This document shows positions 6,852 to 42,260 of a stretch of DNA of 42,260 bases, in pieces. The DNA lies in NCBI GenBank assembly GCA_964372955.1, contig CAYJTC010000002.1, positions 1 through 42,260 of the forward strand, read 5' to 3'. The stretch is from an uncultured Planctomycetia bacterium (GTDB taxonomy: Bacteria > Omnitrophota > Gorgyraeia > 1-14-0-20-64-10). Under the pieces are notes generated by a model, which worked only from the letters and a program-made list of their open reading frames with translations, did not search any database and was not told the origin of the DNA. Made by a program: the position numbers and the translations under genes. How positions within the stretch are numbered: position 1 is the first letter of the stretch; each line of letters opens with the position of its first letter.

Positions 6852-7091
6852 CTACTCGATGACGTCGCCGACGATCGGCTCAACCTTGATCCCCTGGCGG
6901 GTCAAATAGCGGACTCCCTTCTCCAGGTTCTCCCGGGTCCCCTCCAACTCCAGCACCATCTCCCCGACCGACTCGGTCACCTTGGCCCGCCGGACGTTGG
7001 GGACCACCCGGCATTTGACCGCCATGGTGTAGATCACCGGCTTCTTGATCAGCCGCTGGGGAAAGATTAGGTGGACGATTTTTTTGGACAT
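6852..7091 (-). CDS. NIL-domain protein (stand-alone, about 79 aa)
   Basis: Chosen start is ATG 7091 (MSKKIVHLIFPQRLIKKPVIYTMAVKCRVVPNVRRAKVTESVGEMVLELEGTRENLEKGVRYLTRQGIKVEPIVGDVIE), which looks like a typical NIL fold sequence. It lies 4 nt after the MoaD-like stop. The 43-codon upstream extension in the ORF track is only the MoaD tail repeat read in another frame. Confidence 0.75.
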   Translation of the reverse strand: MSKKIVHLIFPQRLIKKPVIYTMAVKCRVVPNVRRAKVTESVGEMVLELEGTRENLEKGVRYLTRQGIKVEPIVGDVIE

Positions 7092-7095
7092 CGGA

Positions 7096-7458
7096 TCAGC
7101 CCCCACCTGCGATGGCCGGTGCGCAGAGGCGCCTGGCATCGCTTCCACCTGCGATGGCCGGTGCGCAGAGGCGCCTGGCATCGCTTCCTCCTGCGATGGC
7201 CGGGATGATCGACACCTCATCCCCGTCCTTCAGGGGAGTGGCCTCTGCCTTCAGGAACCGGATGTCTTCTTCATTCACGTAGATGTTGACGAACCGCCGC
7301 AGGCGCCCCTGCGGATCGCACAGACGATCCTTGAAGCCGGGGAACTGCTTTTCCAGGTCCTGGATCAGGTCCTGGACCGTCTGCCCGGAGGCGTCCACCT
7401 CCGGTTTATCTCCGGTCAACTTCTGCAGTGGAGTCGGTATTCTGACAACAATGGCCAT
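7096..7458 (-). CDS. MoaD/ThiS-family ubiquitin-like sulfur-carrier protein with a repeated C-terminal extension
   Basis: 120 aa. Beta-grasp pattern MAIVVRIPTPLQKLTGDKPEVDASGQTVQDLIQDL...FVNIYVNEEDIRFLKAEATPLKDGDEVSIIPAIAGG. Instead of stopping after GG it continues SDARRLCAPAIAGGSDARRLCAPAIAGGG*. Confidence 0.85.
   Translation of the reverse strand: MAIVVRIPTPLQKLTGDKPEVDASGQTVQDLIQDLEKQFPGFKDRLCDPQGRLRRFVNIYVNEEDIRFLKAEATPLKDGDEVSIIPAIAGGSDARRLCAPAIAGGSDARRLCAPAIAGGG
7104..7203. repeat. Perfect 42-bp tandem repeat (2 full copies plus a 16-nt third copy) inside the 3' end of the sulfur-carrier gene
   Basis: CACCTGCGATGGCCGGTGCGCAGAGGCGCCTGGCATCGCTTC occurs at 7104..7145 and identically at 7146..7187. 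7188..7203 repeats the first 16 nt with one mismatch. Confidence 0.95.
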
Positions 7459-7517: not shown

Positions 7518-8744
7518 CTATGATTTAACGTTCTCTTCAAACGACGCAAGCGTCGGCTTGATCTTGATCGGCTTGCCGATGGCCTCGACGACCGCCTCCT
7601 GGGTCTTCAACCCGTGGCCGGTGACGCAGACCACGATCGATTCGTCGCGGGGGATCTTCTTCTCCTCGATCAGCCGCCGGGTGGCGGCCAGCGTCACCCC
7701 GCCGGCGGTCTCGGTGAAAACCCCTTCGGTCTGGCCCAGCAGCTTGATCGCCTCGATGATCTCCTCGTCGCTGACCGCCGCGCCCCAGCCGCCGGTTTCC
7801 CGGATGGCGTCGGCCGCGTAGTAACCGTCGGCCGGATTGCCGATCGCCAAGGACTTGGCGATCGTTTTGGGCTTAACCGGCTTGATGATATCGGAGCCCT
7901 CCAAGATGGCGGTCACGATCGGAGCGCATCCGGCGGCCTGGGCGGCGTACAGTTTGGTCTGCGGCTTCTCAATCAGACCCAGCTTGCGGAACTCCTTGAA
8001 CCCCTTCCAGATCTTGACCAGCAGAGACCCGCTGGCGGCCGGCACCACGATATGCCGCGGCGTCTTCCAGCCCATCTGCTCGGCCACCTCGAAACCGTAG
8101 GTCTTAGATCCCTCCGCGTAATAAGGGCGAATGTTAATGTTGACGAAGCCCCACCGGTGCCGGGTGGCGATCTCCGCGCAGAGCCGGTTGACCTCGTCGT
8201 AATTGCCCTCTACCGCCACCAGGCGGGGCTTGTAGATGAGGGACCCTACTACCTTGCTTGACTCCAGATCAGCCGGGATGAAGACAAAGCGTTCGAACCC
8301 GGCCTGGGCCGAAAGAGCCGAAACAGCGTTGGCCAGATTTCCGGTAGAGGCGCAGGCAACGGTGTCGAAGCCCAGCTCCCGGGCCCGGGAGAGGGCCACG
8401 GAGACGACCCGATCTTTAAAGGAAAGAGTAGGGTGGCAGACGCTGTCATCCTTGATGTACAGCTCCTTCACACCCAAGACCTTGCCCAGCCGCTCGGCCC
8501 GGAAGAAAGGGGTCATCCCGGTGTGAAGGCCGACCGTCGGATCCCCGTCGATGGGCAGCAGCTCCCGGTAGCGCCAGATGCTGCGCGGCCGGGATTCGAT
8601 CCGCTCCCGGGTGAGCTTCCCCTGGATGGCGGCGTAGTCGTAGTCCACCTCCAGGGAGCCGAAACAGTACTCGCAGACGAACAGGGCCTTGGGCGGAAAC
8701 TCCCGCCCGCATTCGCGGCAGCGCAGTCCTTTGATCAACGACAT
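7518..8744 (-). CDS. Threonine-synthase-family PLP enzyme with N-terminal zinc ribbon
   Basis: 408 aa. CRECGREFPPKALFVCEYC ribbon. PLP-lysine motif HPTLSFKDRVVSVALSRA. Also ACASTGNLANAVSA and VVPAASGSLLVKIWKGF. The start overlaps the upstream stop (TAATG at 8742..8746). Confidence 0.9.
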   Translation of the reverse strand: MSLIKGLRCRECGREFPPKALFVCEYCFGSLEVDYDYAAIQGKLTRERIESRPRSIWRYRELLPIDGDPTVGLHTGMTPFFRAERLGKVLGVKELYIKDDSVCHPTLSFKDRVVSVALSRARELGFDTVACASTGNLANAVSALSAQAGFERFVFIPADLESSKVVGSLIYKPRLVAVEGNYDEVNRLCAEIATRHRWGFVNINIRPYYAEGSKTYGFEVAEQMGWKTPRHIVVPAASGSLLVKIWKGFKEFRKLGLIEKPQTKLYAAQAAGCAPIVTAILEGSDIIKPVKPKTIAKSLAIGNPADGYYAADAIRETGGWGAAVSDEEIIEAIKLLGQTEGVFTETAGGVTLAATRRLIEEKKIPRDESIVVCVTGHGLKTQEAVVEAIGKPIKIKPTLASFEENVKS

Positions 8745-9535
8745 TAAGACGGTGAATAGTGAATCGTGGATAGTGAATCGATCGGCTTCTCTTTTTTGAG
8801 AGCCTTGGGCAGGATCACCACTTCCACGCGGCGGTTTTGGCGGCGGCCCTCCGGGGTATCGTTGGAGGCCACCGGATGGAACTCCCCGACCCCAACCGCC
8901 CTCAGGCGGGCCGGCTCAACCGCTTGCTGATCGATAAAATGGTGAACCACCGCCAGCGCCCGGGCAGTGGAGAGCTCCCAGTTGGACCTCCATCCGGAAT
9001 ACCGGATCGGCTCGTTATCGGTGTGCCCCTCCACCGCCACCGGGGAGTCCGGAACCGTTTCTTTGAGAACCGCGGCCACCTTTTCCAGAGTTTGGGCCCC
9101 CTCCTCTTTAACCAGCGCCTTGCCGGAATCGAAGAAGATCTCATCCAGGAAGGTCAGCACCAGCCCCCGCTCCGTCATCTCCAGCTTGGCCCGGGCCTCC
9201 CCCAACTCCTTCTTCAAGCTTTCGGCCAACTCCTCCTGGGCGTCAAGCAGCTCCTGGTTCTCCCGGGATTTCTGCTCGACCACCTGCGCGACCTGTCGGG
9301 TTTGCTCCTCCTGGAGCCGGCCGATCTGCGTCAGCAGATCCCGGCGGGATTGCTCGGCCTGGCTCAGCCGGCCTTTGAGCCGCTCCACCTCGGTCTCCAG
9401 GCCCTGCATTCGGGCCGACTTCCAGCCCCAGGAACAGCCGGTGAGAAGCAGGGAAAAGAGGGGAAACAGGGAGAACAGGGGAAACAGGGAAAACAGGTTT
9501 CCCCTGATTCCCCTGCCTCCCCTATTCACCCTCAT
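8744..9535 (-). CDS. OmpA/MotB-family lipoprotein with coiled-coil linker
   Basis: 263 aa. Lipobox LLLTGC. Coiled coil (LETEVERLKGRLSQAEQSRRDLLTQIGRLQEEQ). OmpA-C domain (VEGHTDNEPIRYSGWRSNWELSTARALAVVHHF, RRQNRRVEVVIL). ATGA overlap with the upstream MBL gene at 9532..9535. Confidence 0.9.
   Translation of the reverse strand: MRVNRGGRGIRGNLFSLFPLFSLFPLFSLLLTGCSWGWKSARMQGLETEVERLKGRLSQAEQSRRDLLTQIGRLQEEQTRQVAQVVEQKSRENQELLDAQEELAESLKKELGEARAKLEMTERGLVLTFLDEIFFDSGKALVKEEGAQTLEKVAAVLKETVPDSPVAVEGHTDNEPIRYSGWRSNWELSTARALAVVHHFIDQQAVEPARLRAVGVGEFHPVASNDTPEGRRQNRRVEVVILPKALKKEKPIDSLSTIHYSPS
8751..8780. repeat. Heptanucleotide tract in the last codons of the OmpA-like gene
   Basis: GGTGAAT AGTGAAT CGTGGAT AGTGAAT CG. 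Period 7. Immediately upstream, in mRNA sense, of the ThrC-like start codon. Confidence 0.8.
9448..9535. repeat. Inverted arrays of 9-bp repeats encoding the OmpA-like signal peptide
   Basis: + strand 9448..9497: GCAGGGAAAAGAGGGGAAACAGGGAGAACAGGGGAAACAGGGAAAACAGG. + strand 9498..9535 is the complementary type: TTTCCCCTGATTCCCCTGCCTCCCCTATTCACCCTCAT. In mRNA sense the G-rich arm gives MRVNRGGRGIRGN and the C-rich arm gives LFSLFPLFSLFPLFSLLL. Confidence 0.9.
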
Positions 9536-10402: not shown

Positions 10403-13400
10403 TTACAGGTAGAGTTCGGGCTGGCGCTCGAGCCGCTTCTGCCAGGTCCGGAAGGAGACGTCCTCGATCTCCAGGAAATCACCCAGCCCGCTCAGGCCCG
10501 AAGGGGTCCAGATGGTCAGGACATCCAGGCCGCGGCCGATGGCGTCCACTTGCATCTTGGTGATCACATCCGACGGGTCTTTATCGGCATAGGGAGGGCT
10601 TTTCAGATTGATGATTTTCGCCGCCAGGCCGGTGTCCTTTAGCCAGCCCTCAATCTGCCCGGCGTGGTGGACATGCTCGGCGAAGATCACCAGGTTGATC
10701 TGCTCGCCGGGGACCGGCTTCAGCTGAGCCAGGCCCTGAAGCACCTCCTCGGTGGCCACCTCCGGCCCCAGGAAGATCACCTTCCCCGCCGTCACGCCGG
10801 GCTTCAGCCGGATTTGAAGCTCCTCAAGCCCGGCCGTAGCAGGTTGGGCTTTAACCCGGGCCTGAGCGAGAGCTTTCGGATACCATTCCTCGTCAACCAG
10901 CTTGCGAAGGGCTTCCGCCACTTGTTTGGCGCGCGCTCCTTGGCCTTCGGTGGCAATGCGCAACATCCCCTCTGTCAAAGAACCTCTGAGCCAGACGAAC
11001 GCCTTCCCGCCGTCCAGCTCCAACTCCATAATCCATCCTCCCATACCGAAGGGAGTCCCATTCTCGCTGGGCAAGGTCAAACCGGCTCCCGCCGGATCGG
11101 CCGGACCATAAGCGGGAGAGAGACCGGTTTCCGAGTCGTAAACAATCCGGTAATCGGCCGTAGGATGCACCGATGTCCCGTCCGCCAGGATGAGTCCCTC
11201 TTTCTGGAGTCGATCCCGCAGGTTTTCCTTCCACAGGGTTTCCCAAGCCCGTTTGAAAGGGATCATGAGCGCCTCCGGAACCTCTCCCTGTGCTCCCTGA
11301 TCGCGGATCGGGGTGGAGAAACGCCAGCTTCCCTCGCTCCGGTCTCCCGGCAGGCTCCCGAGAATATCCAACAGAGTGGGCACGGCAGGCACTTCTACTG
11401 GAGGAACGCCGTTGGGTACCGCGGCGTTTCTGGCTTGGAGCCAACTTCGCGCCCATTCCGGATCGGTGGCCACCATCCCTAGAAATAGAGCGGTCATCGC
11501 CCCGTTGCGGCTGGTATCCCCCAAAAACTGAGCGCTCTCTCCCCGGAATACCGTGCCGCCGTTGGCTCCTTCGATTCCAAGAACCACCCGATAAGTAGGG
11601 CGGCCTCCGGCGTCCTTCTGTGCCTCCAGCTTCCTCATCTTCTCCAAGACGTTGACCTCTCCCACCTCCACTGGGAACACCTCAGCCCCAAAGGCCTTGG
11701 CGATTTCCAAAACCCGTTTGGAGGTGGCGCTGTGAGCGACGACGGCCAATTTTGAAGCATCCCCCGCCGGTCGAGCGCGGGCGGCTCTGGCTAAGCCCAA
11801 AGCCATGTTCATCGCGGCCACCTCTTGGGGATTGGGCTCAACGGCCTGACCGGTCTTGGGATCCAGAAGGAGCGTGTTCGCCCGGTCGGCGTCGTAATCG
11901 GTGATGATGGCGAAATGGGCTTGGGCTTCTTTCAGCACCCTCTCAGCATCGGCCAACGCGTTCCCCTTCTCTGGATCGTTCACCGGCTCCAGGATATGCT
12001 GGGGCTGTCCTACAACATGGTTGATCTCGATCAGATCAAACCCCATCCTTTCTAGGAATTCCGCGTAATACCCGGTTGCCGCCCCTCCATTAGGATCAAC
12101 CACAATCCGGACCCGTTTGGCTTTCTCTCGAAATCCCTGGAACTCCTCCTCCTGTTCCAAACCCCACATCTGCCGAGCCTCTTTGACAACCTGCCCCAGA
12201 ATCTTCTCCCGAGAGACCGTTTCAAGTCTGCCGACGGGCACGGCGTTCAAGCGCTGGACAAATTCCTGTGCCTGCTCAGGAGACGCCCCCGCCTGCGCGG
12301 CCCACCGGCGGAATTGGTCGACGACACTCTTCATCTGGCGCGAGGGAAGCAGGATCCCTCCTTCCACCAGACTTCCCGCGGGTTCGGTGGCGGCTGTTGG
12401 GTATTTTACGCCGTTCCATCTTAAAGGATTGTGGCTGGCAGTGATGATGCCCCCTCCATGCGCTTCCACCAAGCGCACTAGACTCTCAGAGAGGGGGGTG
12501 GGAAGGATTCCCCCCTCGACTTCAACGAACCGGACCTTGACGTTGAACTCCTGGGCTGCGACCGAAATCCCCCGCATGTGGGCCTCCTGGATGGCCCTGC
12601 CGGTTGGACGGGGATCCCGCCCAAAGATGAAGGTAAACTCCGAACGGCCGGAAAATTTCTCAATCTGGAGTTTGGCGAAAAGGTACCCGTATCGCGCGAA
12701 GATCAGCTTCTGCGCGGGGGAAAGCTTCACATCCGCCAGCGGAGCCAAAATGGGAGGGTCGACGTTCGGGCCCAAATCGGCCCGCACACCGGAGAAGGAC
12801 TGGATCAGTGTCCTGTCCGGATCAGTCACCTCGGCCCACTTGGACCAATCGATGGGGCCTAGCCATTCCTCCGGGCCGGCCACAACCTCGCTTTGCGGAT
12901 GGACGAAGACGGCGAACTCCCCTTCGAAACCCATCTTTGAACGAACGACGGTGACATTCCCTCCGAGGGACTGTTGGATCGCCTCCAGGAAGATATCCGG
13001 CTTTCCACTTTCCTCAGGAGGCAGTCCCCAGAGCTGGCCAATCGATCCGGCCAAGACAATCGGCCCCTGCGTGAAGGGCTGCCCGGCGTAGGCGTCCAGG
13101 TAAACCCGCAGGACCTGGCCCAGCTCGGTTCCAACCTGCTCCAGGAACTGGCGGGCCAGTCTGCCGTGGATCGTTGAATCGTTCAAAGCTCTCTGGGTTA
13201 TCCCCTGGAGAACGATCAGCTGCAGCTTCTCGTCCGCCAAGATCGGCCGGTGGGCGCCGGGAAGATCATCCTCAGTCAGATTTTGGGTCACCGGACCACC
13301 GAATAATCGGTCAATCTCTGCATCGGACAGACGGTACAAATCATTGTTTCTCAGGAATTCAATGGTGCGGGCCGCAAGCCACGGCCCTCCAAACTCCTTC

Positions 13401-16400
13401 TCGGCCGGCTCTTCCTCCGGCTGAGGATCCGGCAGTCTCCCTTCCTTGGGAAAATGATAGACCCACGGGCCGTCCGCCTGCCTCATGACACTCCATCCAA
13501 ATTCCCCCAACAGGCCGCCCACTTCTTGTCCGGGGAGTGAGTCGATCGGCTTTCCGCCTTGAAGAACACCGATGCTGGTACCAGTCCCTAAGGTCAGAAC
13601 CATCCCCTGTTGAAGCCCCTTGAGAGCCCCTTCTTCCCAAAGAAACTCTCCCCATACCCGGGCCTCATCCTCGGAGACGATTCGGATGGGCAGTTCCCTC
13701 CCGAAGAGGGAATAGAGCTCCTCTCCCAGAAGCTGTTTGAAGGGGGTGGGCTTCCGAAACCCGACGATCTTGGCGTTCTGGACGGTCAGGGGGCCAACCA
13801 CCCCGCCGAATGAGATCCCCACTTCTTTCAGATTCTCTGGCTGAGCGTCAAGGTCCTCCCGGAGCGTTTTCTGAATCAGTGCGGCGATCACCTGAGCCGC
13901 CCAACGCTCATCCGTATCTTGCCCAAAATCGGGATACATATTCTTCAGTTTTTCCCAAGTGAAGTATTCCGTGGCGATCTCAGAGGCCGCCCGGGCGCCG
14001 TCCTTCTCCCCTACCCCGACCCCCACCTTGAACGCCCCCATGCTTAGATAAACACCGACATCCGGCGCCTGAGCTTCCCTGGTCCCCGGGGCGCTCACCG
14101 TCTCGCGCCCAGCGCCAGACTCGGCCTCCTTATTCGTCGGCCGGCGCTCCTCCAGGCCGGCCGCCGCGCCTGCCAAGTCAGATAGAGCCTGGATGACCGA
14201 CCGATTCGAAGTTTGAGGCAGTCGGTTGACCAACTGGTCCAGCACCGCCTCCCAACCGCCTAAGAGGGCCGCCGCCCTGCGCTTGGCAATTTCGATCTTG
14301 AGGATCTCACAGACTCCCGCGGGCCCCAGAGTTGGGCAGCGGATGACTGAGCCGGGCAGCTCTTCCTGAGGCTCTCCCACCAGCACTGTGGTGATCCCCT
14401 CCTGGCTCATGGAAAGCCCTGCAGCATCCGCGTCATCGAGGAAAACGACTTTCCCCTTCCGATGTCGGAGGAAATCATCCTTCCCGAAAGCGTACAGGTC
14501 GATGGAGGTGTCGAGGAAGGGGCCCACCAAGGTTTCCCCAAAAGCCTTTACCAAACGGGACCGAACCTCTCTACCTGCCGATTCCAATGCGTTTTCCGCC
14601 AGACCGTTAGGGCGAAGCTGCACGATGCCATACAGCTTGGGGCCCTGACCTTCCTGCATCACATAGAGGTTCAGATCCCCCAGCCGGTAAAGATCCATGT
14701 CCGGATTGGCCGGTGGAATCACCGGATCCTCCAGCTCTCCCCCGATGTTCAAACCTGGGATAGGCCCCCACTCCGCCGACTGGATGGCCGCCACAATCCG
14801 GTCGATCGTGAACTCTCCGGATCCCATGCGCTGGGTCACCAACTCCGGAAACTCCTCTTTCAACCAGCGGGTCCCATTGCGGCCCATGTGCTGCAATGGG
14901 CCGGTCCCTTCTTGGGCCCGCTGGCGAAGATTCTGATCCGCTCGGTTGGAAAGAAAGCCCCCTTTCCCCCCCAAGGCCAGATATTCCCCGCACAGCCGCA
15001 GCACCTCCGGATCGGCCTGGGCCTTGCCGTCCGGAGCGCCGGCACGGTCCAGGTCGATCCAGATTTCATCGGCAGGAGGATCCCACGCCAGCCGTTCCAT
15101 TCCCTTGAGAGCCGGCGGCAGCAGAGCTTCCCACCTCTGCGCCAACTGCTCGGGCCGATAAGCAGGCTGAAGGACGCGGATCCCTTTGACCTCGCGCGGG
15201 ACCGCCTCCGTTAAAGGCAGACGAACCACCTGGATTCCGGGAAACGTCTTCTCCGCATCCTTCAGTTTCACCGGACCTCGGGGATGCAGGTGGAAAACCC
15301 TCTGATACGCTCCCGGATTTTGTCGGGCAAGCCAGTCGAAGGTCTTTCCTTCCATCACCTCAGGCGAGGGCCCTTTCGGATGACGCTGGCCAAGCATCAC
15401 GATGCTGACCACCTGACTCAAAGTCGCTGTCGGCACCTGACTTTGGATGATCCCCTCCATCGCCTTCCGATAGTCCACGATGTTGTAACGGATGGTAAAG
15501 AGCAGGTTGTCCGGGTTGACCATCCAGATAATCGTGGCTCCCCGTTTCTTGGCGTCGATGAGCGCCTGAATCACCCCGGGGATGGAGAGGATGCTGGCGA
15601 CACTCTCATGGAAATTTCCGGGCGCGATGACGACCAGCTCCGCCCGCCGGATCTGCCGCAGAAAGAGCGGATTGGCGGCAAAGGGCGGCTGCCCCTTGCC
15701 CGAGACAAACCGGTAGGCGCCGGGTCCTAAGAGAACCGAGGCCCGATCCTTCGGGCTCCGTAGCATCTGCTCCAGAAGCTGCTGCGCCTTCTGCGCAGAG
15801 ACCGGTTCCCCGTTGGGGCCGGCCACCAGATCCGAGAGGATCTCCAGACTCTTGGGATCCCCCACGGGAGGAACGACTAATCCTACCGTGCCCAGCCCCC
15901 GCCGCACCGTCGCGTGCGCTCGGCCAGTCCTCAGATCACCATGCACCGTCACGATCTGAGGAGACTCAAAGGTGGTCGGCAGAACCCAGGGCCCTCCGAC
16001 GGCTTCCCGGAGCAGATATTCGGCAACCAGATACTTTTCTGTGTCGATGGGCCCTCCCCTCGGATAGGCCCCGACCATGACCTTCGCCCCGACATCCAAC
16101 AAATTCTGCAAGGTCTGGCCGCTGACGGCGATATAATCCTTCTGAATCAGCTCTGCATCGACAACCTCAAAGACCTGCTGGAGGAACGCCAGGAACCGAA
16201 CCAGCGCGGCCCGCCCTTGAGAACCCAAAGGCCCCTGCTCCTCCTCCCAGCGGGCGATCATGCTGGGGATCCCTGTGACCAGCTCCTCCATCTTTCCCTG
16301 CCGATACTCCTTCTGGGCCGCCCGTGAAACCGCCAGTTCCCACAGGGACCCCGGAGGAATTTCGGAAGGCAGCTCCAGCTTCAGCAGCTCCCGGATCAGG

Positions 16401-18781
16401 CCCTCGCCCCGCAAGTTCATCGGGTCGGCCATGTCGACCGGATTGACTCCTCGCTGGGCCAGGACCTCGGCGCGGAAACGGCCCGCCCTTCCCCAGGTGT
16501 CCAAGACATTGGCCCAAAGCACGGCGTCCACGCCTACCCTCTTCAAAGATTCAGCCACAAGATCTGTCCCGTGGCCGCCCCCCAAAACGACAACTGGCGG
16601 AGCCCCATTCAGGAAATGAAGCACCCGCTCTGGAGTGGGCCAATGTTCCGGCATGGCCCAGCCCAAAACCTGCTCCTCGGACGCCGGCACGTCGGACTGC
16701 AGGGACCGGCGCGACAGGAGGCCAACGCCAGCTTTCACCCACTCCTCCGCTTCATTCTCCGATCCAATGGCCAGCGTCAACTCCTGAACCGTCGGCGCCT
16801 GCACCTGGATCTCCTCCAGCCCCGCCTGAGTCTGCTGAGCCTGGGCTGCCAGGGTGGCCTCTACCTGTTCCAAATCCGCCTGAGTGGTCAGGTCCGGCGC
16901 CTTCGCCGGGTCAATCAGCACCGTCTCCACCCGACCGTCCTGATCCAGCACCATCCTTACAATGTCGGTCAGGTAAAACTGGCTTTGGGCGTTGTTGTTC
17001 GTGGTCGCGGCCAATTCATCAAAGAGATGCTTGGCTTTCATGGCATAGATCGAGACGTTGCATTCATGGATAGCCAGCAGCTGCTCCATGGTGTAACCGC
17101 CCAACGTGGTCCCCGCCTTGATGTCTTCCTCTTCCAGGATGCCTAATACCTGTCCTTTCGCATCCCGAACGATCCTGCCTTTCCCTTTCGGATCAGCAAA
17201 AATCGCCGTGGCGATCACCAGGTCGGCTCCGCTATCCCGATAAGCTTTTTCCACCGATTCCAGAACCTGCCGGTCATACAACGGCTGATCCCCCATCGTG
17301 GCGATGACCAGCGCGTTGCTGTCTCTTAGACCTTTCACCGCCGCCCCATGGTAGATGGCGTAGCCGGTTCCACCGGTCGGGTTCTCCACCTCGACAAAGA
17401 TAATTTCCGGCATGTGGGCCCGATACGCATCCATCACTTTCCCCTTCTCATACCCAACCACCGAAATCACCGGCCAGCCCAAATCCCTGGCGAAAAGTTT
17501 GGTGCGAACTCCACTGGGGAGGGTTCCCCTCACAGGGTCTTTTAAGAGGGCAATCATCTTCAGCTGCTGCCCCGTCGAGTCAAACCGGGTCCCTCTACCG
17601 GCATCCGCGGTCACCAGCACCGTCTTTGCATCAGACAGATCTTGCCCCATTTCCGCTGGATAACTCACCGGTACCGATTTCAGATCGACCGCCTGCTCCA
17701 GAAGCTGGCCCTCCTCCAGCCCGGCCTGCGGAGTCGCGGCGATCTGGTCATAGAGTGCAAAAAGGGTCAGGATGGCATTTCCGGAGGGCTGGGTTAATGT
17801 GGGACCCAGCTCTTCCAGCCGGGTCCAGTCCGAAAGAGAAAGCGGGGACACCATCCGGTCTCCAAACTGAGACTCGGGGGCGGTCAGGCTGCGAAAGAGC
17901 CGGTGCCGCAATGTCTGGGTCGTGTGCCGGTAATGGAGATTTTGAAAGGGCCGCGGGAGGGTGTCGCCGGCATTCTCATCGTATTCGCCCTCGATGGCAT
18001 GAAGGACGATCTTCTGCCTCAGCAGGAGGGGGTCGATCCCTTGATCTCCGGCCAGCTCCTCCAATAGATCCAGGAAGAGCCGGTAAGTGTCTCCTGAAAA
18101 AACACTGTCCAAGAGAACCGTGACACCTCTTCTTCGCACCAGAGAAACCGGATCCAAGACCTTCTCCAGGTATTTCTTGTAAGCCGCCTTCTGTTCCGGG
18201 CTCGGCTCTTTGCGCACTCTGGAGATAACCACCGAAGAATACGCATATCCCCTGGCGAAAGCTCCCTTCTGCCCCACCCGATCCATCGCTTCCAGCGCTC
18301 GGACCAAAAGGGCAGCGCTGTCTCCCAAAGCGACCAACTGTAACTGAGGCTCATCCCGGTATTCCCGCTCCAGAATCTCCCGGGTCCGCTGGGCGGTGGC
18401 CAGCAGATCACGGATCCGATCTTCCACGGAGTAGTCCCTTTTGTTGTAAGCGAAATCGGGGTATTGGAGCGCCGGCATCGGCTGGAAAGTGGCTGCGACC
18501 TGGCCCCTCAAGGAACCTTTTGAAGCATCCGTCAATCGCCGGTAATTTTCATAGGTGGGCTCTTCTCGAAAGGTCTTCAAGTCCGCCGTCTCTTCCAGCC
18601 CGGCCCGCTGGGGGGCCCGGAGGTTGGATTCCAGCCCGGTTTTGGCGCCGCTCTGATGGGCCGCCTCACCCCGGAGGGAGTCGGCCTCAGCGAAAGCAAA
18701 AGGGCAAGGAATCCCGGAAAAGGCGAGCGCCTGGATCAGGGTCCAGGCGCTTAAGCCGCGAATGCGAATCGGAAATTTCAT
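10403..18781 (-). CDS. Giant multidomain protein B (about 2792 aa): signal peptide, unknown domain, sugar-phosphate nucleotidyltransferase-like, YvcK/CofD-family, unknown/HAD-like, ROK/PPGK-like kinase, phosphohexomutase, shared C-terminal domain
   Basis: Uninterrupted 8.4-kb ORF. ATG at 18781 (in-frame TTG at 18784), 27-30 nt after ORF-A. Residue numbers follow the ORF track.
- aa 1-33: signal peptide (MMKFPIRIRGLSAWTLIQALAFSGIPCPFAFA|EA).
- aa ~385-625: GT-A nucleotidyltransferase like the GlmU N-half (VLVTADAGRGTRF, GGTGYAIYHG, ATMGDQPL, FYLTDIV).
- aa ~728-1100: UPF0052/YvcK/CofD type (VVVLGGGHGTDLVAESLK, AELVVIAPGNFHESVASILSIPGVIQALIDAKKRGATIIWMVNP).
- aa ~1235-1460: weak HAD-like motifs (IWIDLDRAG, VVFLDDADAAG).
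- aa ~1575-1950: ASKHA/ROK-like (MVLTLGTGTSIGV, IVLAGSIGQ), with a degenerate N-terminal phosphate loop.
- aa ~2045-2625: alpha-D-phosphohexomutase with all four loops (GGIITASHNP, AIITDYDADR, GIEGANGG, RGSLTEGMLRIATE).
- aa 2656-2793: C-terminal domain. Confidence 0.93.
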   Translation of the reverse strand: MKFPIRIRGLSAWTLIQALAFSGIPCPFAFAEADSLRGEAAHQSGAKTGLESNLRAPQRAGLEETADLKTFREEPTYENYRRLTDASKGSLRGQVAATFQPMPALQYPDFAYNKRDYSVEDRIRDLLATAQRTREILEREYRDEPQLQLVALGDSAALLVRALEAMDRVGQKGAFARGYAYSSVVISRVRKEPSPEQKAAYKKYLEKVLDPVSLVRRRGVTVLLDSVFSGDTYRLFLDLLEELAGDQGIDPLLLRQKIVLHAIEGEYDENAGDTLPRPFQNLHYRHTTQTLRHRLFRSLTAPESQFGDRMVSPLSLSDWTRLEELGPTLTQPSGNAILTLFALYDQIAATPQAGLEEGQLLEQAVDLKSVPVSYPAEMGQDLSDAKTVLVTADAGRGTRFDSTGQQLKMIALLKDPVRGTLPSGVRTKLFARDLGWPVISVVGYEKGKVMDAYRAHMPEIIFVEVENPTGGTGYAIYHGAAVKGLRDSNALVIATMGDQPLYDRQVLESVEKAYRDSGADLVIATAIFADPKGKGRIVRDAKGQVLGILEEEDIKAGTTLGGYTMEQLLAIHECNVSIYAMKAKHLFDELAATTNNNAQSQFYLTDIVRMVLDQDGRVETVLIDPAKAPDLTTQADLEQVEATLAAQAQQTQAGLEEIQVQAPTVQELTLAIGSENEAEEWVKAGVGLLSRRSLQSDVPASEEQVLGWAMPEHWPTPERVLHFLNGAPPVVVLGGGHGTDLVAESLKRVGVDAVLWANVLDTWGRAGRFRAEVLAQRGVNPVDMADPMNLRGEGLIRELLKLELPSEIPPGSLWELAVSRAAQKEYRQGKMEELVTGIPSMIARWEEEQGPLGSQGRAALVRFLAFLQQVFEVVDAELIQKDYIAVSGQTLQNLLDVGAKVMVGAYPRGGPIDTEKYLVAEYLLREAVGGPWVLPTTFESPQIVTVHGDLRTGRAHATVRRGLGTVGLVVPPVGDPKSLEILSDLVAGPNGEPVSAQKAQQLLEQMLRSPKDRASVLLGPGAYRFVSGKGQPPFAANPLFLRQIRRAELVVIAPGNFHESVASILSIPGVIQALIDAKKRGATIIWMVNPDNLLFTIRYNIVDYRKAMEGIIQSQVPTATLSQVVSIVMLGQRHPKGPSPEVMEGKTFDWLARQNPGAYQRVFHLHPRGPVKLKDAEKTFPGIQVVRLPLTEAVPREVKGIRVLQPAYRPEQLAQRWEALLPPALKGMERLAWDPPADEIWIDLDRAGAPDGKAQADPEVLRLCGEYLALGGKGGFLSNRADQNLRQRAQEGTGPLQHMGRNGTRWLKEEFPELVTQRMGSGEFTIDRIVAAIQSAEWGPIPGLNIGGELEDPVIPPANPDMDLYRLGDLNLYVMQEGQGPKLYGIVQLRPNGLAENALESAGREVRSRLVKAFGETLVGPFLDTSIDLYAFGKDDFLRHRKGKVVFLDDADAAGLSMSQEGITTVLVGEPQEELPGSVIRCPTLGPAGVCEILKIEIAKRRAAALLGGWEAVLDQLVNRLPQTSNRSVIQALSDLAGAAAGLEERRPTNKEAESGAGRETVSAPGTREAQAPDVGVYLSMGAFKVGVGVGEKDGARAASEIATEYFTWEKLKNMYPDFGQDTDERWAAQVIAALIQKTLREDLDAQPENLKEVGISFGGVVGPLTVQNAKIVGFRKPTPFKQLLGEELYSLFGRELPIRIVSEDEARVWGEFLWEEGALKGLQQGMVLTLGTGTSIGVLQGGKPIDSLPGQEVGGLLGEFGWSVMRQADGPWVYHFPKEGRLPDPQPEEEPAEKEFGGPWLAARTIEFLRNNDLYRLSDAEIDRLFGGPVTQNLTEDDLPGAHRPILADEKLQLIVLQGITQRALNDSTIHGRLARQFLEQVGTELGQVLRVYLDAYAGQPFTQGPIVLAGSIGQLWGLPPEESGKPDIFLEAIQQSLGGNVTVVRSKMGFEGEFAVFVHPQSEVVAGPEEWLGPIDWSKWAEVTDPDRTLIQSFSGVRADLGPNVDPPILAPLADVKLSPAQKLIFARYGYLFAKLQIEKFSGRSEFTFIFGRDPRPTGRAIQEAHMRGISVAAQEFNVKVRFVEVEGGILPTPLSESLVRLVEAHGGGIITASHNPLRWNGVKYPTAATEPAGSLVEGGILLPSRQMKSVVDQFRRWAAQAGASPEQAQEFVQRLNAVPVGRLETVSREKILGQVVKEARQMWGLEQEEEFQGFREKAKRVRIVVDPNGGAATGYYAEFLERMGFDLIEINHVVGQPQHILEPVNDPEKGNALADAERVLKEAQAHFAIITDYDADRANTLLLDPKTGQAVEPNPQEVAAMNMALGLARAARARPAGDASKLAVVAHSATSKRVLEIAKAFGAEVFPVEVGEVNVLEKMRKLEAQKDAGGRPTYRVVLGIEGANGGTVFRGESAQFLGDTSRNGAMTALFLGMVATDPEWARSWLQARNAAVPNGVPPVEVPAVPTLLDILGSLPGDRSEGSWRFSTPIRDQGAQGEVPEALMIPFKRAWETLWKENLRDRLQKEGLILADGTSVHPTADYRIVYDSETGLSPAYGPADPAGAGLTLPSENGTPFGMGGWIMELELDGGKAFVWLRGSLTEGMLRIATEGQGARAKQVAEALRKLVDEEWYPKALAQARVKAQPATAGLEELQIRLKPGVTAGKVIFLGPEVATEEVLQGLAQLKPVPGEQINLVIFAEHVHHAGQIEGWLKDTGLAAKIINLKSPPYADKDPSDVITKMQVDAIGRGLDVLTIWTPSGLSGLGDFLEIEDVSFRTWQKRLERQPELYL

Positions 18782-18811
18782 CAAAAAAGAGTCGCTAAGG
18801 CAACGTGAATT

Positions 18812-21800
18812 TTACAGGTACTGAGATACCTGCTCTTTGAGTACCCCTTCGGCCGCCTGAATGAAGGACTCCGGAATGGGAACCCCCAGGAACTTTACCA
18901 CCTCCATTAGATCCGATAGGAACAGGGCGAGCTGATAACTGAATCCCTCCGCGCTGAGCCTTTTCTTGGTTTCCCGAGCCGCCAGCATGACATTCCCCCC
19001 GTAACTGACGGAAGCATCGATGAGAGTAATCTGCAGACCCAGCTGCTCGGCACGAGCCTTTACCTTTCTTAAGTGATCTCCATTCTCCACGATGGCCACG
19101 ATCGGAACTTGCTGTCCATCGACCGGCTCAATAGAGGGGACCATCTCCAGAAAAGCCAGCGCTTCGTGAGCCAAGATGAGCCCCTTGTGGGCATCCACCG
19201 CGGAAGGAACGCGGACCAAGGGAATTCCCGAAGTTCTGGAAACTCCGATCGTTCTGGTAACAGGGTTCAAGACGGTGGTCGCCGTCACTAGCGGTGTGGT
19301 CCCCAACGTCCGGACCGGCGGCACCGCCGTCGGCGCTGCCCCCTCCGTCCGTTCCTCCAACCCGGCGGCCGCCGCTTGGCGCGCCTGATCGAAATTCTGT
19401 TTGAACGGCAGGAACTCCGGCTCAAGAGTCAGGTCCGCCACCGACTTCTTAATAACCGGACTGGGCTTGTTGGTCAAATAATTGTCCACGGCAGTCTCCA
19501 GCGCCTGATCCGGATTGTTTTCCCCTTCAAAGAGAGGAGCGAAGAGGGCCTTGGCCGCGGACTTCGCGTCCTGCCGGGCATCCACCTCGATCAGCCGGGC
19601 CAAAACCTCCAGCTCCCGGCCCCAGAGGTTCGTATCCCCCATAAACTGTTGCTTCACCCTATCCAGCCATGCCTCATCATCATCCTTGATCTCCATCCCC
19701 CAATCGCCAGTTTCCGTGTGCCGGGCAAACGCGGTCTGCCGGAGTTCGCTCAGTTTCCAACCCTGCCCGCTCCATTCCGACTGATAGATCCCCAGCCGGG
19801 TCAGGAGTTCTTTCTCCCCATCGTTGACTTCGTAGAATCGGCGGAACTCGTCGCCGATGCTGGAATCGATCAGCTCCTGAATCAACTCCGGCTCAACCTC
19901 CTGGAAAACGCCATCAAGAACGGCGGGATTCTTCTCAATCGCCTGAATGTGGGCGTCAAACTGCGTCTGGGTCACCCCGTTGGGGACATCCGGCTGATCG
20001 CCTTCCTCCACGCCACGCGCGGCGATCGGGAAGAATCCGATCCGGATGTTCCTGCCCGAAGTCTGGAAGAAATGGCTCATGGTGTCGTCCGGCACGGTTA
20101 AACGGGTGGAGGCCAGGAGCTGACCGGTCTCCTCCGGAGTCACCCCGTTGGAGGCCAGTCTAGTCCGCAAGGCGTTTAAGATTCGCTCCGTCTGCTGAAT
20201 GATGGCAGCCCCTGCCCTGCGAACCGCCTTGTCGGAGGAGAGTCTGAAGCTAACGTAAGCTGCAGCTTCCCGCAACACGAGATTGTCCATCAGGCCGTTG
20301 GAGTCCGGGTTCTTCAAGGCCCCTTCCTTGATCTCTTTTTCGAGCTTGGCGAGCAACTCCGCGGCCTTCGGGTCCTGATCCTCGCGGGCCTGAAGCGCCC
20401 TCCGGACCCGATCGATCGCCACCCAACGCAACGCCGCCTCCACCCGGCCAGCCATCTGGGTGATGTAAGCGGCATGGATCGGGATTTTTTGAGTTCGGGC
20501 CTTCATGTTGGCCGTCACCTGGGCCATAAAACCGGCCACCGCCCCAGCCACCGACCCTTGGCCCGTGATGTTGGTGAAGAGCCCCTGGGTATGGACATCC
20601 TCGATGATGCTCTCGGTGTTGATCTGGGTCGGGTCCACCTGGTCGAGGTCGTCCCCCGCCTGCGTTAACGCTTCGTTCCAAGCTTCCAGAACCCGGCCAT
20701 AGACGCCGGCGAGCGTCCCGTCCACCTTAAAGACCGGATGGACCTTGGAATAGCCGTTCCCCAGGGGATTCTCCAGGAAGGCGTCCAACTGCTGCTTCGG
20801 GAAGATCTCCGTCACACCAAGCTCCTTCATCATCGCCTGGGTCTCGGCTGCGAACCGGTCTCCCAGGAGAAAGATGTCGGCTACGACTTCATGACGTTTG
20901 CTTAACCGGGAGTTCACCTGAAAGCTGACCTGCCCCCGCATTCCCTTCTCATGGATGAAAATGGGCAGCAACGCCCGCCGTGCCGGCTCCCCGGCCACCA
21001 TGGTGGCCTCCCGCAGGAGCGCCCACTTGCGCTGCTTCGGATCGTACCCCGGGTTGCTTCTGACGAAATTAAAGACCGCCTCCTTGACCTTCAGCTGGAG
21101 AGACCTGCGCTCCCGGACATTCCGCCGGGAGAGAGTCGGATTGAGCATGACGAAGGTGTAGTAATCGGTGAGCATGTCGATCCCGGCTCCATAGTCGTTC
21201 CCGAGTACCTGGCCAGTCAGCCGCACCGTCCTGCGAAGCCGTGCCTTCTGGATCTTCTCATTGAAGTAGGTCACAAACTCGCTCAAGGAGCCCGTGGGAG
21301 CTTTCTCCGCCCAGTAAGCCAGGAAGGACTGCCCTTTGTTGGTCTTGGCATCGAAATCCTTCTCCACATTGGCCAGCTGGATCTGAAGCAGGTCTTGCCG
21401 CCAGTCGGCCAGTACCTGTTGGGCCAACGGCTTGGCCAAAGCTTCCAGCCGGTTGAGCAGCGCATGCCACTCCTGCACTTCGGCCTGGATAACTTCCGGC
21501 GTCAACACATCCGCTCCAAACAGTTCTTTATTTCTCAGGGTCCGTTCCTGAATCCCTTCGGAAGCCATAAGAAAAGTGGCGTCGGCGAGAAACCGCAAGG
21601 CGCTTCTCTTCTCCGCTTCACCCAATTGGCCGAACTCTTTCTCAAGAGATTCCCGGATAAACCGATTCCGTTCCCGGGAGTTTTGGGGGTGGGTGAAGAA
21701 GGAAAGTTTCTGGGCTCCAAACTCTGCCCGGTCCCAGTCCTTCGCCTGCTGAAGGATCCGACCCCTGACCTGCTCTTCTGTCTCTGCTTGACCAATCTCC

Positions 21801-24800
21801 TCCAGCCCCGCGCGGGCCGGCTCGACGATGATTCTGGTCGGGGTGAATGTGGCTTTGACCCGACCACCGACATTGCCAGGCACACTCCCCGCGCCACCCA
21901 ACAAATCCCTCACCTTCCAGGGACGGTCGCGCACCTCCTCAGGGGAAACATACCAGGGCGAGGGGACACCCTGCGTAGTGACCTCAGCCCGCGGATTCCG
22001 TGCCGCGAATTCCAGGATCTTCTCGTAGACCTCTCCCTGCTCGCCCTCCGTCGTCTCCAACCCCGCCGCGGTCAACGGGAGGTCGGCTCCGGAGCTTGTC
22101 AGCGCCGCCGTCAGCTGAGAAACTCGCGTCTCGATAAATTGCGTTTTCGGCCCCAGGATCTCGACCACAAACTTGTTGCGAGCTGAGTCGTCCAGGAGCT
22201 CTTTCCCCTCTAGCCCCAGAGTGGCGACGACCTTCGCCACACGCTCATCGATTCTCGTCTTGATCAACTCCCTCGTCGCCCGGCTCTGATCCCGATAAGC
22301 GGCGAGGATCTCCGACACTCTTTTGCCTTCATGATTCTCAAAGAGGGTCTGCCGTTCGTGTTCCCATCGCCTGTTTTGGGCCGGGCCTTTCAGGAGGGCC
22401 TGAACCGATTCGGCGTTCAGGCTTCCGGCCTTTTCCAGACGGTCCAATTCCCGGAAAAGCCCCTGCGCGGAATACTGCCTGAGGAACTGCCGATAGGCCT
22501 CGATCCCTCTGATCCGGTTATCCTTGTGCAGGTAGTTGTTGCCCAGCCCCGTGACTCCCTGAGGGCTTGGCCTTTTACCGCCGTCCTTTTCTCCCATATA
22601 AAGGGTTCGTTCCGGATCCACGATATCTTCCAAGTGCGTAAGCGCCTCTTTGACATGGATCGCCGTTTCCGGAGCGTAAATCTCCCCCCGGTATGTGGAG
22701 CGCAACGATTTCTTTCTAGCCGACCATTTCCACTCGTTTCGCAGAAGCATATAGGGCAGATACGTCAGAACCCAACCGGGAGCCACCTCGTTGTAAAGCC
22801 TCTGCTTGGCGCCTAATTTGGTCATGCTGTCCGGATCCGGAACCCCCATGAGCATGAAGGGAAATGTGACCGTCTGCCCGCTGGAGACCAGGATTCCTGT
22901 CTGGAAGAGCGCGTGATCGGACCCGCTGAAATCCGCGGGGAGCTGGAAGACCACGCCGGATCCCCCAAACCCGCCTTTGGGAAGCTTCAGCTCCAGCTCC
23001 GCTCCCGACCCGTCATGATTCGCCGTGATGATCCCAGCCCCGACATTGAATCCGTAAGGAAGGTGGCCTCCCAACACCAGGGAGGTCTTGTGATGGCTGG
23101 TGACAAAATCTTCTCCCAGGTCACCCCCGAACTCCCCTTTCGCCACAAGGCCATCGGGCCCAAGATACATTCCGGTCACGTTGACTCCCTGTTCGGCCGT
23201 GGCGGCTTCGTCAAGGAACATCTGCGTCAACTGAGACGCAGTCGCCGCGTGAGCCTGGGGTTTCATGACCACAAAATTGAGCTGGGCGGCGTTATCAACC
23301 ACCACTTTCTGCTTGCGAACGTGCTGGCGGACGGCCTCTTCGCCGCCTTGGCGAAGCTGAGCCAGTTTGGCTCCAGTCAACTCGACCAGCAGCCGCGGCG
23401 TCTCTTGTTCACTCCTGGCCAAACGGAGCAGCTCTTCCATTTCCGCGGAGGTAAACCCTCCGATCAGCACTGCTTCCTTGACATGCTGGGCATGATCAAG
23501 GAAAGTGTTCTTGCCAACGTAAACGTTGATGACCTGCGAGGTGGTGTCGATGACGGACCCTTCCTCCACAATCCCCCATTTCGATCGGGCCAGCTTGACG
23601 TACTCGGCGTGCTCCGCCCGGTATTGATCCGCGAATCTCTTGTCGGTGAGGAGCCGGCTGGACAGGTGCAACGCTCCTTTCAGGATCAGCTCCGGATGAA
23701 CCGGCAGTTTCCGAACGCCGGCCTCATTTCGGATCTCATGATACTGGGAGAGCCCAAAAGTGGTCTCCGGGTCAGCGGCCATCCTAGCTTTCACCACGAT
23801 GTTATCGCCCTTCAGAACGTAGTTGGTGATCTCGGAAGAATCGATGGCCATGTTCTTTCCCAGACGCGAGTTGCGGATCTCGGAACTAAAGATCCCCCTG
23901 AGCTTCCGGGTGATCCCGTCGGGCAAGGTGATCTCTCTGGGCTCGATCCGCCCGATCTCAACCCGCTCGAAGAAGCGGTTCCCCAAGATCCGGGAAAGAA
24001 ACGCCTTCACCTGATCCGAGGACATGGCGGCGTCAATGAAAACGTCATCCCAGCTTCCGATTTTTCCGGAACTGTTCACGGCGAAATTTCCTTGTCTCTC
24101 CAGAAGAGCTTGTTCCTCTTCGCTGAGCCCTCTGAGCGACTCCGCCGCCTTCCACGCGCCGGCCTGATCAGGCGCCAGGTTGACAGCCCGCACCGACGCC
24201 AGGAACTCGGAGGTTTCCCGGTCTTGGCGAATGGCGGCGATCGGATCGAAGGCCTCCACCTCCTTCGCCCACGTCAAGAACTGCTCCTCCAGCCCGGCCT
24301 GGGAAGGCGGTGGGGACTGGACAGAGGTGGCGGGGGAAACAAAGAAGTAACTTGCGCTGGTGGTGGGTCTGTCTTCTTCCAGGCCGGCCAGGTTGGTGAC
24401 GATCTTGGTGACCCCCTGCTGCTGGTAGGTGAGCACCCGGATCAGCTGATCCGGGTCATGGGCGAAGCCGAAAACCATCGGCAGGTTGATGCGATAGATT
24501 TCCAGCGCTTCCTGCAACAGTTGGTAGACCTCTCCGATTCTCAATCTGGCCTCTTTGGGCGTCGCCTCGGGAGAGTATTTGGATTCCAACGCGCTAATGG
24601 CCCCCGTGATCTGCTGCTTCAAGATTCTGTCCTTTTCAGACAGGCCGTCATCATCCTTCTTGTTCAGAGCCGCGTAGGCGCGGATGATGACCACCTCGTC
24701 CAAAAACTGCGGGTCCTGTGGATCATCGAACTGTCCGAATACACCGCGGGTTCCTGCAGGGTCTTCCAGCTCTTTCCAGATCGCTCTGGCCACCTTGGCC

Positions 24801-41336: not shown

Positions 41337-42260
<924 letters not shown>

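Follow-up and report, generated by a model that had tools for sequence, protein, structure and literature searches.

The 42,260-nt stretch analysed here, referred to as the window (forward strand of contig CAYJTC010000002.1, assembly GCA_964372955.1, from an uncultured bacterium placed in the Omnitrophota), encodes on its minus strand a 120-residue ubiquitin-like sulfur carrier whose C-terminal activation tail, AIAGG, is present three times through tandem repetition of a 42-nt unit. On balance we lean towards a joint reading in which the carrier is made as a precursor whose end is cleared by a JAMM/MPN+ metallopeptidase, the second tail is an old addition held by selection, and the third is a recent copy of near-neutral effect.

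The repeat itself is well delimited. Tandem Repeats Finder reports a period of 42 at 7103-7203 (2.4 copies, 98% matches, score 195), and a repeat search of the window finds the 42-nt units 7103-7144 and 7145-7186 to be 100% identical, with a third partial copy of 17 nt at 7187-7203 that carries one mismatch, GGA versus GGT. The longest exact match at this period is 44 nt. The array is not a product of chance, because the only other exact repeats of at least 30 nt in the window are arrays of 9-mers at its far end. The minus-strand open reading frame (ORF) 7096..7458 (120 aa) translates as ...DGDEVSIIPAIAGG-SDARRLCAPAIAGG-SDARRLCAPAIAGG-G*. Repeat search and translation thereby agree with the first-pass annotation on the three-fold tail and on the two identical units, while the third copy, which it gave as 16 nt, measures 17 nt with the single mismatch. 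The elements of the gene's 3' end are as follows.

7103..7203, no strand: DNA tandem repeat, period 42, 2.4 copies
7096..7458, minus strand: predicted CysO/MetO-type sulfur-carrier gene, 120 aa plus stop (Pfam ThiS, 3DWG chain C match, AlphaFold2 model)
7458..7186, minus strand: β-grasp and first tail, residues 1-91 (ThiS profile ends at residue 91)
7186..7203, minus strand: tail 1, P86-A-I-A-G-G91 (CCGGCCATCGCAGGAGGA), where the fold is canonically activated; no variation across 48 aligned homologues
7191..7186, minus strand: tail 1 Gly-Gly codons GGAGGA, putative relic Shine-Dalgarno of the NIL gene (comparison with locus L208)
7144..7185, minus strand: tail module 1, residues 92-105 (SDARRLCAPAIAGG), comprising the linker SDARRLC and tail 2, APAIAGG; orthologous module in relatives
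7181..7179, minus strand: putative relic NIL start ATG inside module 1 (frame analysis)
7102..7143, minus strand: tail module 2, residues 106-119 (SDARRLCAPAIAGG), probably a recent extra copy, absent from two-tail orthologues
7139..7137, minus strand: second putative relic ATG, inside module 2 (frame analysis)
7101..7099, minus strand: Gly120 codon, giving the encoded end ...AIAGG-G
7098..7096, minus strand: carrier stop TGA (codon-register check)

Module 2 is identical to module 1 save for its last base, and a single Gly after the GG is also found at locus L170. An exact-protein look-up gave no match to the 120-aa product in the public protein collection, and the tail region alone (43 aa) used as a protein query returned 16 candidates with common words, none of them significant.

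By its sequence the protein is best classed as a CysO/MetO-type ThiS/MoaD sulfur carrier. Pfam ThiS (PF02597) matches it with 73.8 bits over profile positions 1-76 of 76, ending at residue 91, and the NCBIfam SAMP1, MoaD and Urm1-like profiles likewise end there. Among solved structures the closest in sequence is CysO from the CysO-CysM complex of Mycobacterium tuberculosis (3DWG chain C, E=1.9e-23), the alignment carrying residues 2-91 onto the CysO C-terminal ...PAVAGG. G90-G91 fall on the closing positions of the profile and on the GG that ends CysO, and are invariant in 48 homologues. An AlphaFold2 model built with these homologues places the β-grasp at residues 1-88 and leaves residues 89-120 without secondary structure, at a predicted local distance difference test (pLDDT) score below 50. 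The ThiS domain is matched only once, such that the repeated part is a 14-residue module and not a whole β-grasp domain. All 40 family-invariant residues are kept, and the core protein is 87-90% identical to its closest relatives. The 29 residues after G91 lie outside the fold and the encoded end is GGG; together with the ThiS match this bears out the earlier description: a sulfur carrier of the ubiquitin-like type, encoded without a free Gly-Gly at its C-terminus.

Extensions, selection and copy-number change

Extended C-termini are common in this family. Two samples were compared, namely the best 120 of more than 8000 homologues found by protein search, and the carrier loci of 80 species-representative genomes from Omnitrophota, Planctomycetia, Nitrospirota, Cyanobacteria and other phyla. 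Residues follow the Gly-Gly in 91 of the 120 homologues, the other 29 ending exactly in AIAGG. The overhang is 1-3 residues in 59 proteins, 4-10 in 14, and more than 10 with no second tail in six; four (P0004, P0010-12) consist of two full tandem carrier domains, seven (P0002, P0003, P0005, P0006, P0007, P0008 and P0009) have one tail module and hence two tails, and one (P0001, locus L001) has three modules and four tails. Among the 80 species loci 57 carriers are extended and 23 end at GG. At the short end an extension is a single residue; at the long end it is a whole NIL domain or another carrier domain. The first-pass annotation had proposed asking whether orthologues stop at IPAIAGG, and had named common extensions as an outcome that would speak against its own interpretation; in both samples extensions are what was found.

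The longest extensions are fusions. In nine species carrier and NIL domain form one continuous reading frame (...AIAGG-linker-KKRVTLVFPQ...), both in Planctomycetia/Omnitrophota (L132, L134, L140, L149, L156, L165) and in Desulfuromonadales and other delta-proteobacteria (L192, L193, L202). Such a gene parallels, in prokaryotes, the ubiquitin-fusion genes, and a cut behind an internal Gly-Gly is implied. The fusion linker of L140 has a second AGGSL motif. The two-domain carriers P0004, P0010, P0011 and P0012 are 188-192 aa long with each domain ending in GG, a polyubiquitin-like arrangement, and in a Verrucomicrobiota locus (L176, 9662-10276) two separate carrier genes stand in tandem.

Duplication of the tail alone is seen in a set of relatives with a shared gene neighbourhood. 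Their one-module consensus is [SC]D[AT]R[RH]x[CSG]AP[AP]I[AV]GG, and tail copy number among them runs from 2 to 4. The order of a MetM-like gene followed by the carrier is common to all; a gene for a NIL-domain protein lies directly downstream in L002 to L006 and L212, and L002, L003, L005 and L006 run on into an extracytoplasmic function (ECF) sigma factor gene, as does the window. Wider synteny with the window is seen in L002, L004, L005 and L208, the last encoding a 94-aa orthologue that ends AIAGG-SDA, within synteny of more than 17 kb. Scanning metagenome DNA for the degenerate linker pattern GGNGGNWGCGATRCCAGGCRC gave, among the matches listed, nearly all chance hits; the one true locus among them, L055, is L005.

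The second tail appears to be neither recent nor free to change. Core DNA identity between the window and the measured module-bearing or SDA-type orthologues is 74-79%, and seven further diverged lineages have one module and thus two tails. Non-synonymous (pN) and synonymous (pS) change compared over eight lineages divides the gene as follows.

Core: pN/pS 0.165, pS 0.70
Tail 1: pN/pS 0, pS 0.305
Linker (SDARRLC): pN/pS 1.75, pS 0.095; minimum of 2 synonymous and 7 non-synonymous changes
Tail 2 (APAIAGG): pN/pS 0.059, pS 0.59; minimum of 13 synonymous and 2 non-synonymous changes

Under neutrality the pattern in tail 2 has a binomial P=1.7e-5, and tail 2 differs from the linker with Fisher P=0.003. 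Within a genome, tails 1 and 2 are 3-5 nt apart in L002, L005, L007 and L212, with all differences synonymous in L002, L007 and L212, and 0-1 nt apart in the window, L001, L004 and L214. Since the differences of 3-5 nt are mostly synonymous, the conservation of tail 2 does not stem from gene conversion or recency, and gene conversion as its sole cause is ruled out by the four lineages that carry them. RNA structure was also rejected as the cause: although a palindrome (CCGGCGATCGCCGG) is possible in the PAIAG codons, the inter-tail pairing is not kept across lineages. RNA-folding z-scores of the repeat region are near 0 for the window, L208 and L007, with L002 alone reaching -3.45. The comparison argues that the amino-acid sequence of tail 2 is under purifying selection and that the first module is an old, kept feature of the lineage. 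The linker behaves differently. Its first 16 nt (GGA AGC GAT RCC AGG C; window 7171-7188 and orthologous sites in L001-L007, L212 and L214) are nearly invariant synonymously, and its pS of 0.095 compares with 0.6-0.7 in the rest of the gene despite varying downstream residues and loss of the ATG in five lineages.

The extra modules have a different history. They are found in the window and L001 only, two of the four lineages with near-identical tails, which is consistent with near-perfect direct repeats that slip or exchange unequally. Unit copies do not differ at all within the window and hardly differ within L001, and three fixed differences separate the two genomes, whose carrier core DNA is 79% identical. 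Because the units are alike within each genome and differ at three positions between them, the two expansions would be recent and probably independent. Whether two, three or four tails are encoded, the allele stays in frame and closes in the same way, the unit of 42 nt being 14 codons. A phase-variable contingency locus was considered and rejected, as a change in unit number leaves the reading frame intact.

These results redraw part of what the first-pass annotation had made of the repeat. Its argument from unit identity to a recent event holds for the last duplication only, where the 42-nt units are identical. It had offered a choice between a trimming peptidase and a recent slippage or assembly product; the recent last copy stands, whereas the choice itself overlooks a module that is old, present in seven other lineages and selected in its second tail. 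Nor would slippage alone inactivate the carrier, as had been suggested, given that each unit ends in a full tail and whole-unit slippage leaves the C-terminal sequence unchanged. The Cys said to be added by each unit is indeed encoded there; it is not conserved, and its functional importance is ruled out by a position that is C, S or G among orthologues.

Origin of the unit and gene context

The source of the unit is visible in L208, where the carrier ends GGA GGG AGC G[ATG CC]T AA and NIL begins at that ATG (MPKK...). At L208 10270-10290 the GG codons lie 4 nt ahead of the NIL ATG, and the two genes overlap by 8 nt. On this sequence the carrier Gly-Gly codons (GGAGGG) double as the NIL Shine-Dalgarno, and the 'SDA' tail is a by-product of the 8-nt overlap. 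The 42-nt unit consists of the SDA/ATG segment, 15 nt of filler, and the tail and Shine-Dalgarno codons. Each window unit retains GG(A/T)GGAAGCGATG, and the NIL frame runs without a stop from the gene's start back across the two modules as far as the ATGs at 7139 and 7181 (ORF 6852..7220). The first-pass annotation had not noted this relic initiation region inside the unit. NIL isoforms of 95 and 109 aa beside that of 79 aa are conceivable, while a conserved N-terminally extended NIL protein is ruled out by the loss of frame and ATG in most relatives. Overlap of this kind recurs in Nitrospira, where carrier and NIL overlap by 13 nt and the carrier tail is a conserved [ST][SL]C[RQ]x. In L135 (10274-10330) the frame continues past the carrier stop as ...RGTIAGGR* just ahead of the ThiF start, a second 'IAGG' that comes from the Shine-Dalgarno region of the next gene and shows a route by which tail-like motifs originate beside coupled genes.

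The carrier is flanked by two genes of the same strand, both intact, in the order MetM-like enzyme, carrier, NIL.

7518..8744, minus strand: MetM-like pyridoxal phosphate (PLP) enzyme, 408 aa, threonine-synthase homologue (Pfam PALP 225 bits; NCBIfam TIGR00260 thrC 301 bits)
6852..7091, minus strand: NIL-domain protein gene, 79 aa (Pfam NIL 57 bits), starting 4 nt past the carrier stop

The MetM-like gene lies directly 5' of the carrier, with a 59-nt gap in the window, and directly upstream of the carrier in 81 ORF matches across related loci; the NIL gene directly downstream is kept in relatives. Threonine synthases are the nearest solved structures of the enzyme, with the alignment starting at about residue 55, and compared with them it has some 50 extra N-terminal residues with a CxxC...CxxC zinc-ribbon-like segment. 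The thiocarboxylate route to homocysteine was reportedly described by Hasebe et al. in 2024, in Streptomyces albulus. In this MetM/MetO pathway, as two citing texts outline it (GapMind 2026 preprint 10.1101/2024.10.14.618325, PMC12172450), O-phosphohomoserine and the carrier thiocarboxylate yield homocysteine, MetO is matured by a Mec-type hydrolase and MoeZ is the activating enzyme, E1. As a ThrC homologue adjoining a ThiS/MoaD carrier is the MetM/MetO signature, the operon is assigned to the thiocarboxylate homocysteine pathway, and the product of 7518..8744 is predicted, from context and literature, to be a homocysteine synthase that uses the carrier thiocarboxylate. An independent line connects NIL domains with the making of homocysteine, namely the NIL/ferredoxin proteins of methanogens and Desulfovibrio (PMC5764234), and this recurrent link lends the pathway circumstantial support. 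An Rfam scan of the window found no riboswitch, S-adenosylmethionine (SAM) riboswitches included, and no other RNA family.

As the first-pass annotation had stated, the window encodes no JAMM peptidase; Pfam on all large ORFs, with a motif scan for JAMM, found neither a JAMM nor a ThiF domain in the 42 kb. Both are frequent beside carriers elsewhere. A phmmer search with a cluster JAMM protein (E<=1e-5) found 44 homologous ORFs in the set of 80 loci, almost every one of which has the HSHx7SxxD motif, and ThiF-like ORFs were found there also; in the relatives' clusters Pfam bears both out, with Prok-JAB at 68-88 bits and ThiF at 292 bits. JAMM and ThiF are both present in the carrier cluster in about half of the 80 species, the typical order being (ThiF)-MetM-carrier-NIL-ThiF-JAB in Nitrospirota and JAB...MetM-carrier-ThiF-NIL in other Omnitrophota, a phylum rich in JAMM peptidases. 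Over the 49 loci with at least 3 kb of flank on both sides, a nearby JAMM gene goes with extended carriers (28 with, 9 without) more than with unextended ones (5 with, 7 without), at Fisher P=0.04 and an odds ratio of 4.4, uncorrected for phylogeny. A JAMM gene lies near five of the six carrier-NIL fusion loci with adequate flanks.

Some of these clusters are broader. That of L210 runs JAB-TusA-CysM-TusA-MetM-carrier-ThiF-NIL, and at L210 83-2000 and L141 4250-8735 alike JAB, TusA, a CysM-like enzyme, MetM, carrier, ThiF and NIL are combined, with ATP sulfurylase and ABC transporter genes in addition in L141. In such clusters one carrier may serve cysteine and homocysteine synthesis alike. P0122, P0204 and P0234 are JAMM-TusA fusion proteins.

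Elsewhere in the window, 41995-42260 holds about 18 copies of a 9-nt repeat (GGGGAAACA/GGGGAATCA/GGGGAAAGA) followed directly by at least 12 copies of its rough reverse complement (CTGTTTTCC/CTGTCTTCC) that run off the window end, together a large inverted array able to form a hairpin. A smaller inverted 9-nt array of about 5 + 5 copies lies at 9443-9550 over the junction of a Lactamase_B-like and an OmpA-like ORF. Two giant minus-strand ORFs have scattered domains of sugar metabolism, 10403..18784 (2793 aa) with PGM/PMM, CofD, ROK and NTP_transf and 18812..30274 (3820 aa) with DUF4954, SIS and GATase; a syntenic giant gene of more than 3400 aa stands ahead of the same operon in L208.

Proposed explanation and its alternatives

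In the explanation that we favour, the protein would serve as the MetO/CysO-type sulfur carrier in making homocysteine by way of a thiocarboxylate. Carriers of this family would normally start out as precursors that continue past the Gly-Gly, and a Mec-type JAMM/MPN+ metallopeptidase would be expected to clear their end. In the CysO and HcyS systems the same enzyme class also frees the amino-acid product from the carrier, a GG-amino-acid amide, in every cycle. In one Omnitrophota sub-lineage a 42-nt duplication would have created a second complete tail (APAIAGG) 14 residues downstream, and since tail 2 is under purifying selection it is presumably recognised by at least one tail-binding enzyme (E1, MetM or JAMM). 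Where tails 1 and 2 are near-identical they would form a direct repeat prone to slippage or unequal exchange, through which the window may have gained its second module and a relative three. As the unit is 14 codons ending in a full tail, a change of copy number keeps both frame and C-terminal sequence and is probably near-neutral; the third tail would probably be a recent in-frame slippage copy of this kind. This neutrality is inferred, and so are the cleavage, the choice of working Gly-Gly and a JAMM and an E1 gene in this genome.

Several points weigh against this explanation. Neither JAMM nor ThiF was found on any contig of the module-bearing sub-lineage or on the syntenic, SDA-type L208, and when JAMM matches were set against module-bearing assemblies by NCBI accession range (P0002 MBI3318942, P0054 MDO8730765) the JAMMs tested fell in other assemblies; the peptidase in module-bearing genomes is thus assumed. 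If JAMM cut after tail 1, tail 2 should drift, and the picture of a thrown-away pro-peptide is to that extent incomplete. The synonymous invariance of the linker points to a constraint at the nucleotide level, and the three-tail state is that of an assembled contig.

The selection on tail 2, as strong as that on tail 1, could also mean that the distal Gly-Gly is the working end, with the linkers kept, the last 0-2 residues trimmed, the thiocarboxylate on the last tail and copy number setting the tether length. P0007 and P0009 stop exactly at the second GG and other module-bearing carriers at GG plus 1-2 residues; module-bearing C-termini thereby mirror the tail lengths found past a working GG elsewhere in the family, and the operon has no JAMM gene nearby in this sub-lineage. 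However, in the CysO-CysM complex (3DWG) the β-grasp docks and about five tail residues reach the active site, and a tail longer by 14-42 residues would uncouple docking from insertion. Tail 1 is, moreover, still perfectly conserved, the carrier-NIL fusions show that long extensions past tail 1 are compatible with the system, presumably via cleavage, and the stop position is also accounted for by the duplicated start architecture of NIL. We consider a distal working end unlikely, albeit deserving of some weight. That the repeated tail is a selected design providing serial activation sites strikes us as doubtful. In one version a JAMM cut after the distal Gly-Gly would bare a fresh, undamaged tail and so make the carrier 'reloadable'; in another the distal tail on a long flexible tether would be the working end; in a third the freed 14-residue ...APAIAGG peptides would be substrates or regulators of E1, MetM or JAMM. 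Were such a design real, copy number (2-4) would tune the capacity of the pathway.

It is improbable that the selected effect is on NIL, the units duplicating a Shine-Dalgarno and an ATG and so altering NIL expression or isoforms (79, 95 and 109 aa), with the tails a by-product. The GG(A/T)-containing segment of the unit is a genuine NIL initiation region in L208, both relic ATGs of the window are in frame with NIL with the frame open, as it is in L004 and L005, and the synonymous sites of the linker are nearly invariant at the pS given above. Yet the ATG has become ATA in five SDT-type lineages (L002, L005, L007, L212, L214), the relic ATG frame differs from the NIL frame in L001, and the downstream gene in L007 and L214 does not begin like NIL. 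The constraint on tail 2 is furthermore on carrier-frame amino acids, the free synonymous change altering the +1-frame peptide. Assembly error is a very improbable source of the third tail. The identity of the two units and the absence of the exact 120-aa protein from public collections would suit a true state of one module, as in other relatives, but an array of 101 nt with 44 nt of exact self-overlap is below the length of ordinary reads and large k-mers and should normally be resolved, and an independent assembly, L001 (a MEGAHIT k141 contig), has three modules with its own unit sequence, which shows that such expansion takes place in nature. We give just as little credit to a carrier disabled by the expansion, whether as a decaying gene or a loss-of-function allele. 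This would accommodate the GGG end, the two internal GG sites and the lack of a peptidase gene in the window; it sits badly with an intact ORF, the conserved core and invariant residues, intact operon partners and an end of the same kind as in two-tail orthologues that are themselves under purifying selection.

Comparison with known systems

Ubiquitin-fold sulfur carriers are prokaryotic relatives of ubiquitin, for which exposure and recognition of the Gly-Gly end are central. At this locus the tail alone can be seen to be duplicable, then kept by selection, with a copy number that varies between close relatives, while carrier fusions to NIL or to a second carrier domain provide prokaryotic counterparts of ubiquitin-fusion and polyubiquitin genes. 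The natural series of one, two, three and four tails bears on the substrate needs of the Mec-type JAMM peptidase, the E1 and the MetM enzyme, on whether Mec-type JAMM peptidases act as endopeptidases on long extensions, and on how an overlapping gene start, with Gly-Gly codons as ribosome-binding site, shapes a C-terminus. It also carries a warning for annotation, in that odd-ended carriers with adjoining 'threonine synthases' denote a homocysteine pathway and not pseudogenes. JAMM-trimmed extended carriers and the MetM/MetO pathway are already known. The searchable literature yielded no description of a tail duplicated, selectively kept and varied between 2 and 4 copies, of a module derived from an overlapping gene start, or of carrier-NIL fusions and two-domain carriers in the same family, and these appear new.

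The nearest parallel is MetM/MetO of S. albulus, in which a threonine-synthase homologue likewise adjoins a ThiS/MoaD-type carrier. The Streptomyces carrier, as the citing texts describe it, needs a Mec-type hydrolase and an E1 (MoeZ), and JAMM and ThiF are present in the clusters of the window's relatives. Unlike it, the window carrier has three Gly-Gly sites, JAMM and E1 are not in the window, Rfam finds no SAM riboswitch, and the operon includes a NIL gene, of which no mention was found for the Streptomyces system in the citing texts consulted. In the CysO-CysM-Mec+ system of M. tuberculosis (3DWG/3DWM) the chemistry produces a carrier-GG-amino-acid amide that the JAMM peptidase must hydrolyse in every cycle. 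CysO and the window carrier have the tail ...PA(V/I)AGG in common, and some relatives of the window (L141, L210) have a CysM-like gene in the cluster. CysO differs in ending at GG as encoded, and its partner is an O-phosphoserine sulfhydrylase, whereas that of the window carrier is a ThrC-type enzyme.

Residues past the Gly-Gly are trimmed by JAMM ahead of adenylation in HcyS/HcyD of Wolinella and QbsE/QbsD of Pseudomonas, and to our knowledge the JAMM-trimmed carrier extensions so far described are 1-2 residues of arbitrary sequence. BilC processes BilA in a further bacterial system (PMC11354881). Like HcyS, QbsE and BilA, the window carrier has extra residues past its Gly-Gly, with no peptidase gene found in the window; unlike theirs, its extension is a repeated, selectively conserved copy of the tail in variable number. 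Polyubiquitin and the ubiquitin-ribosomal-protein fusions are similar in being ubiquitin-fold precursors cut after Gly-Gly, with a lineage-variable number of repeats. The true analogues of these among the window's relatives are the two-domain carriers (P0004, P0010-12) and the carrier-NIL fusions. The window differs from polyubiquitin in repeating a 14-residue tail module only, with no evidence of conjugation to targets.

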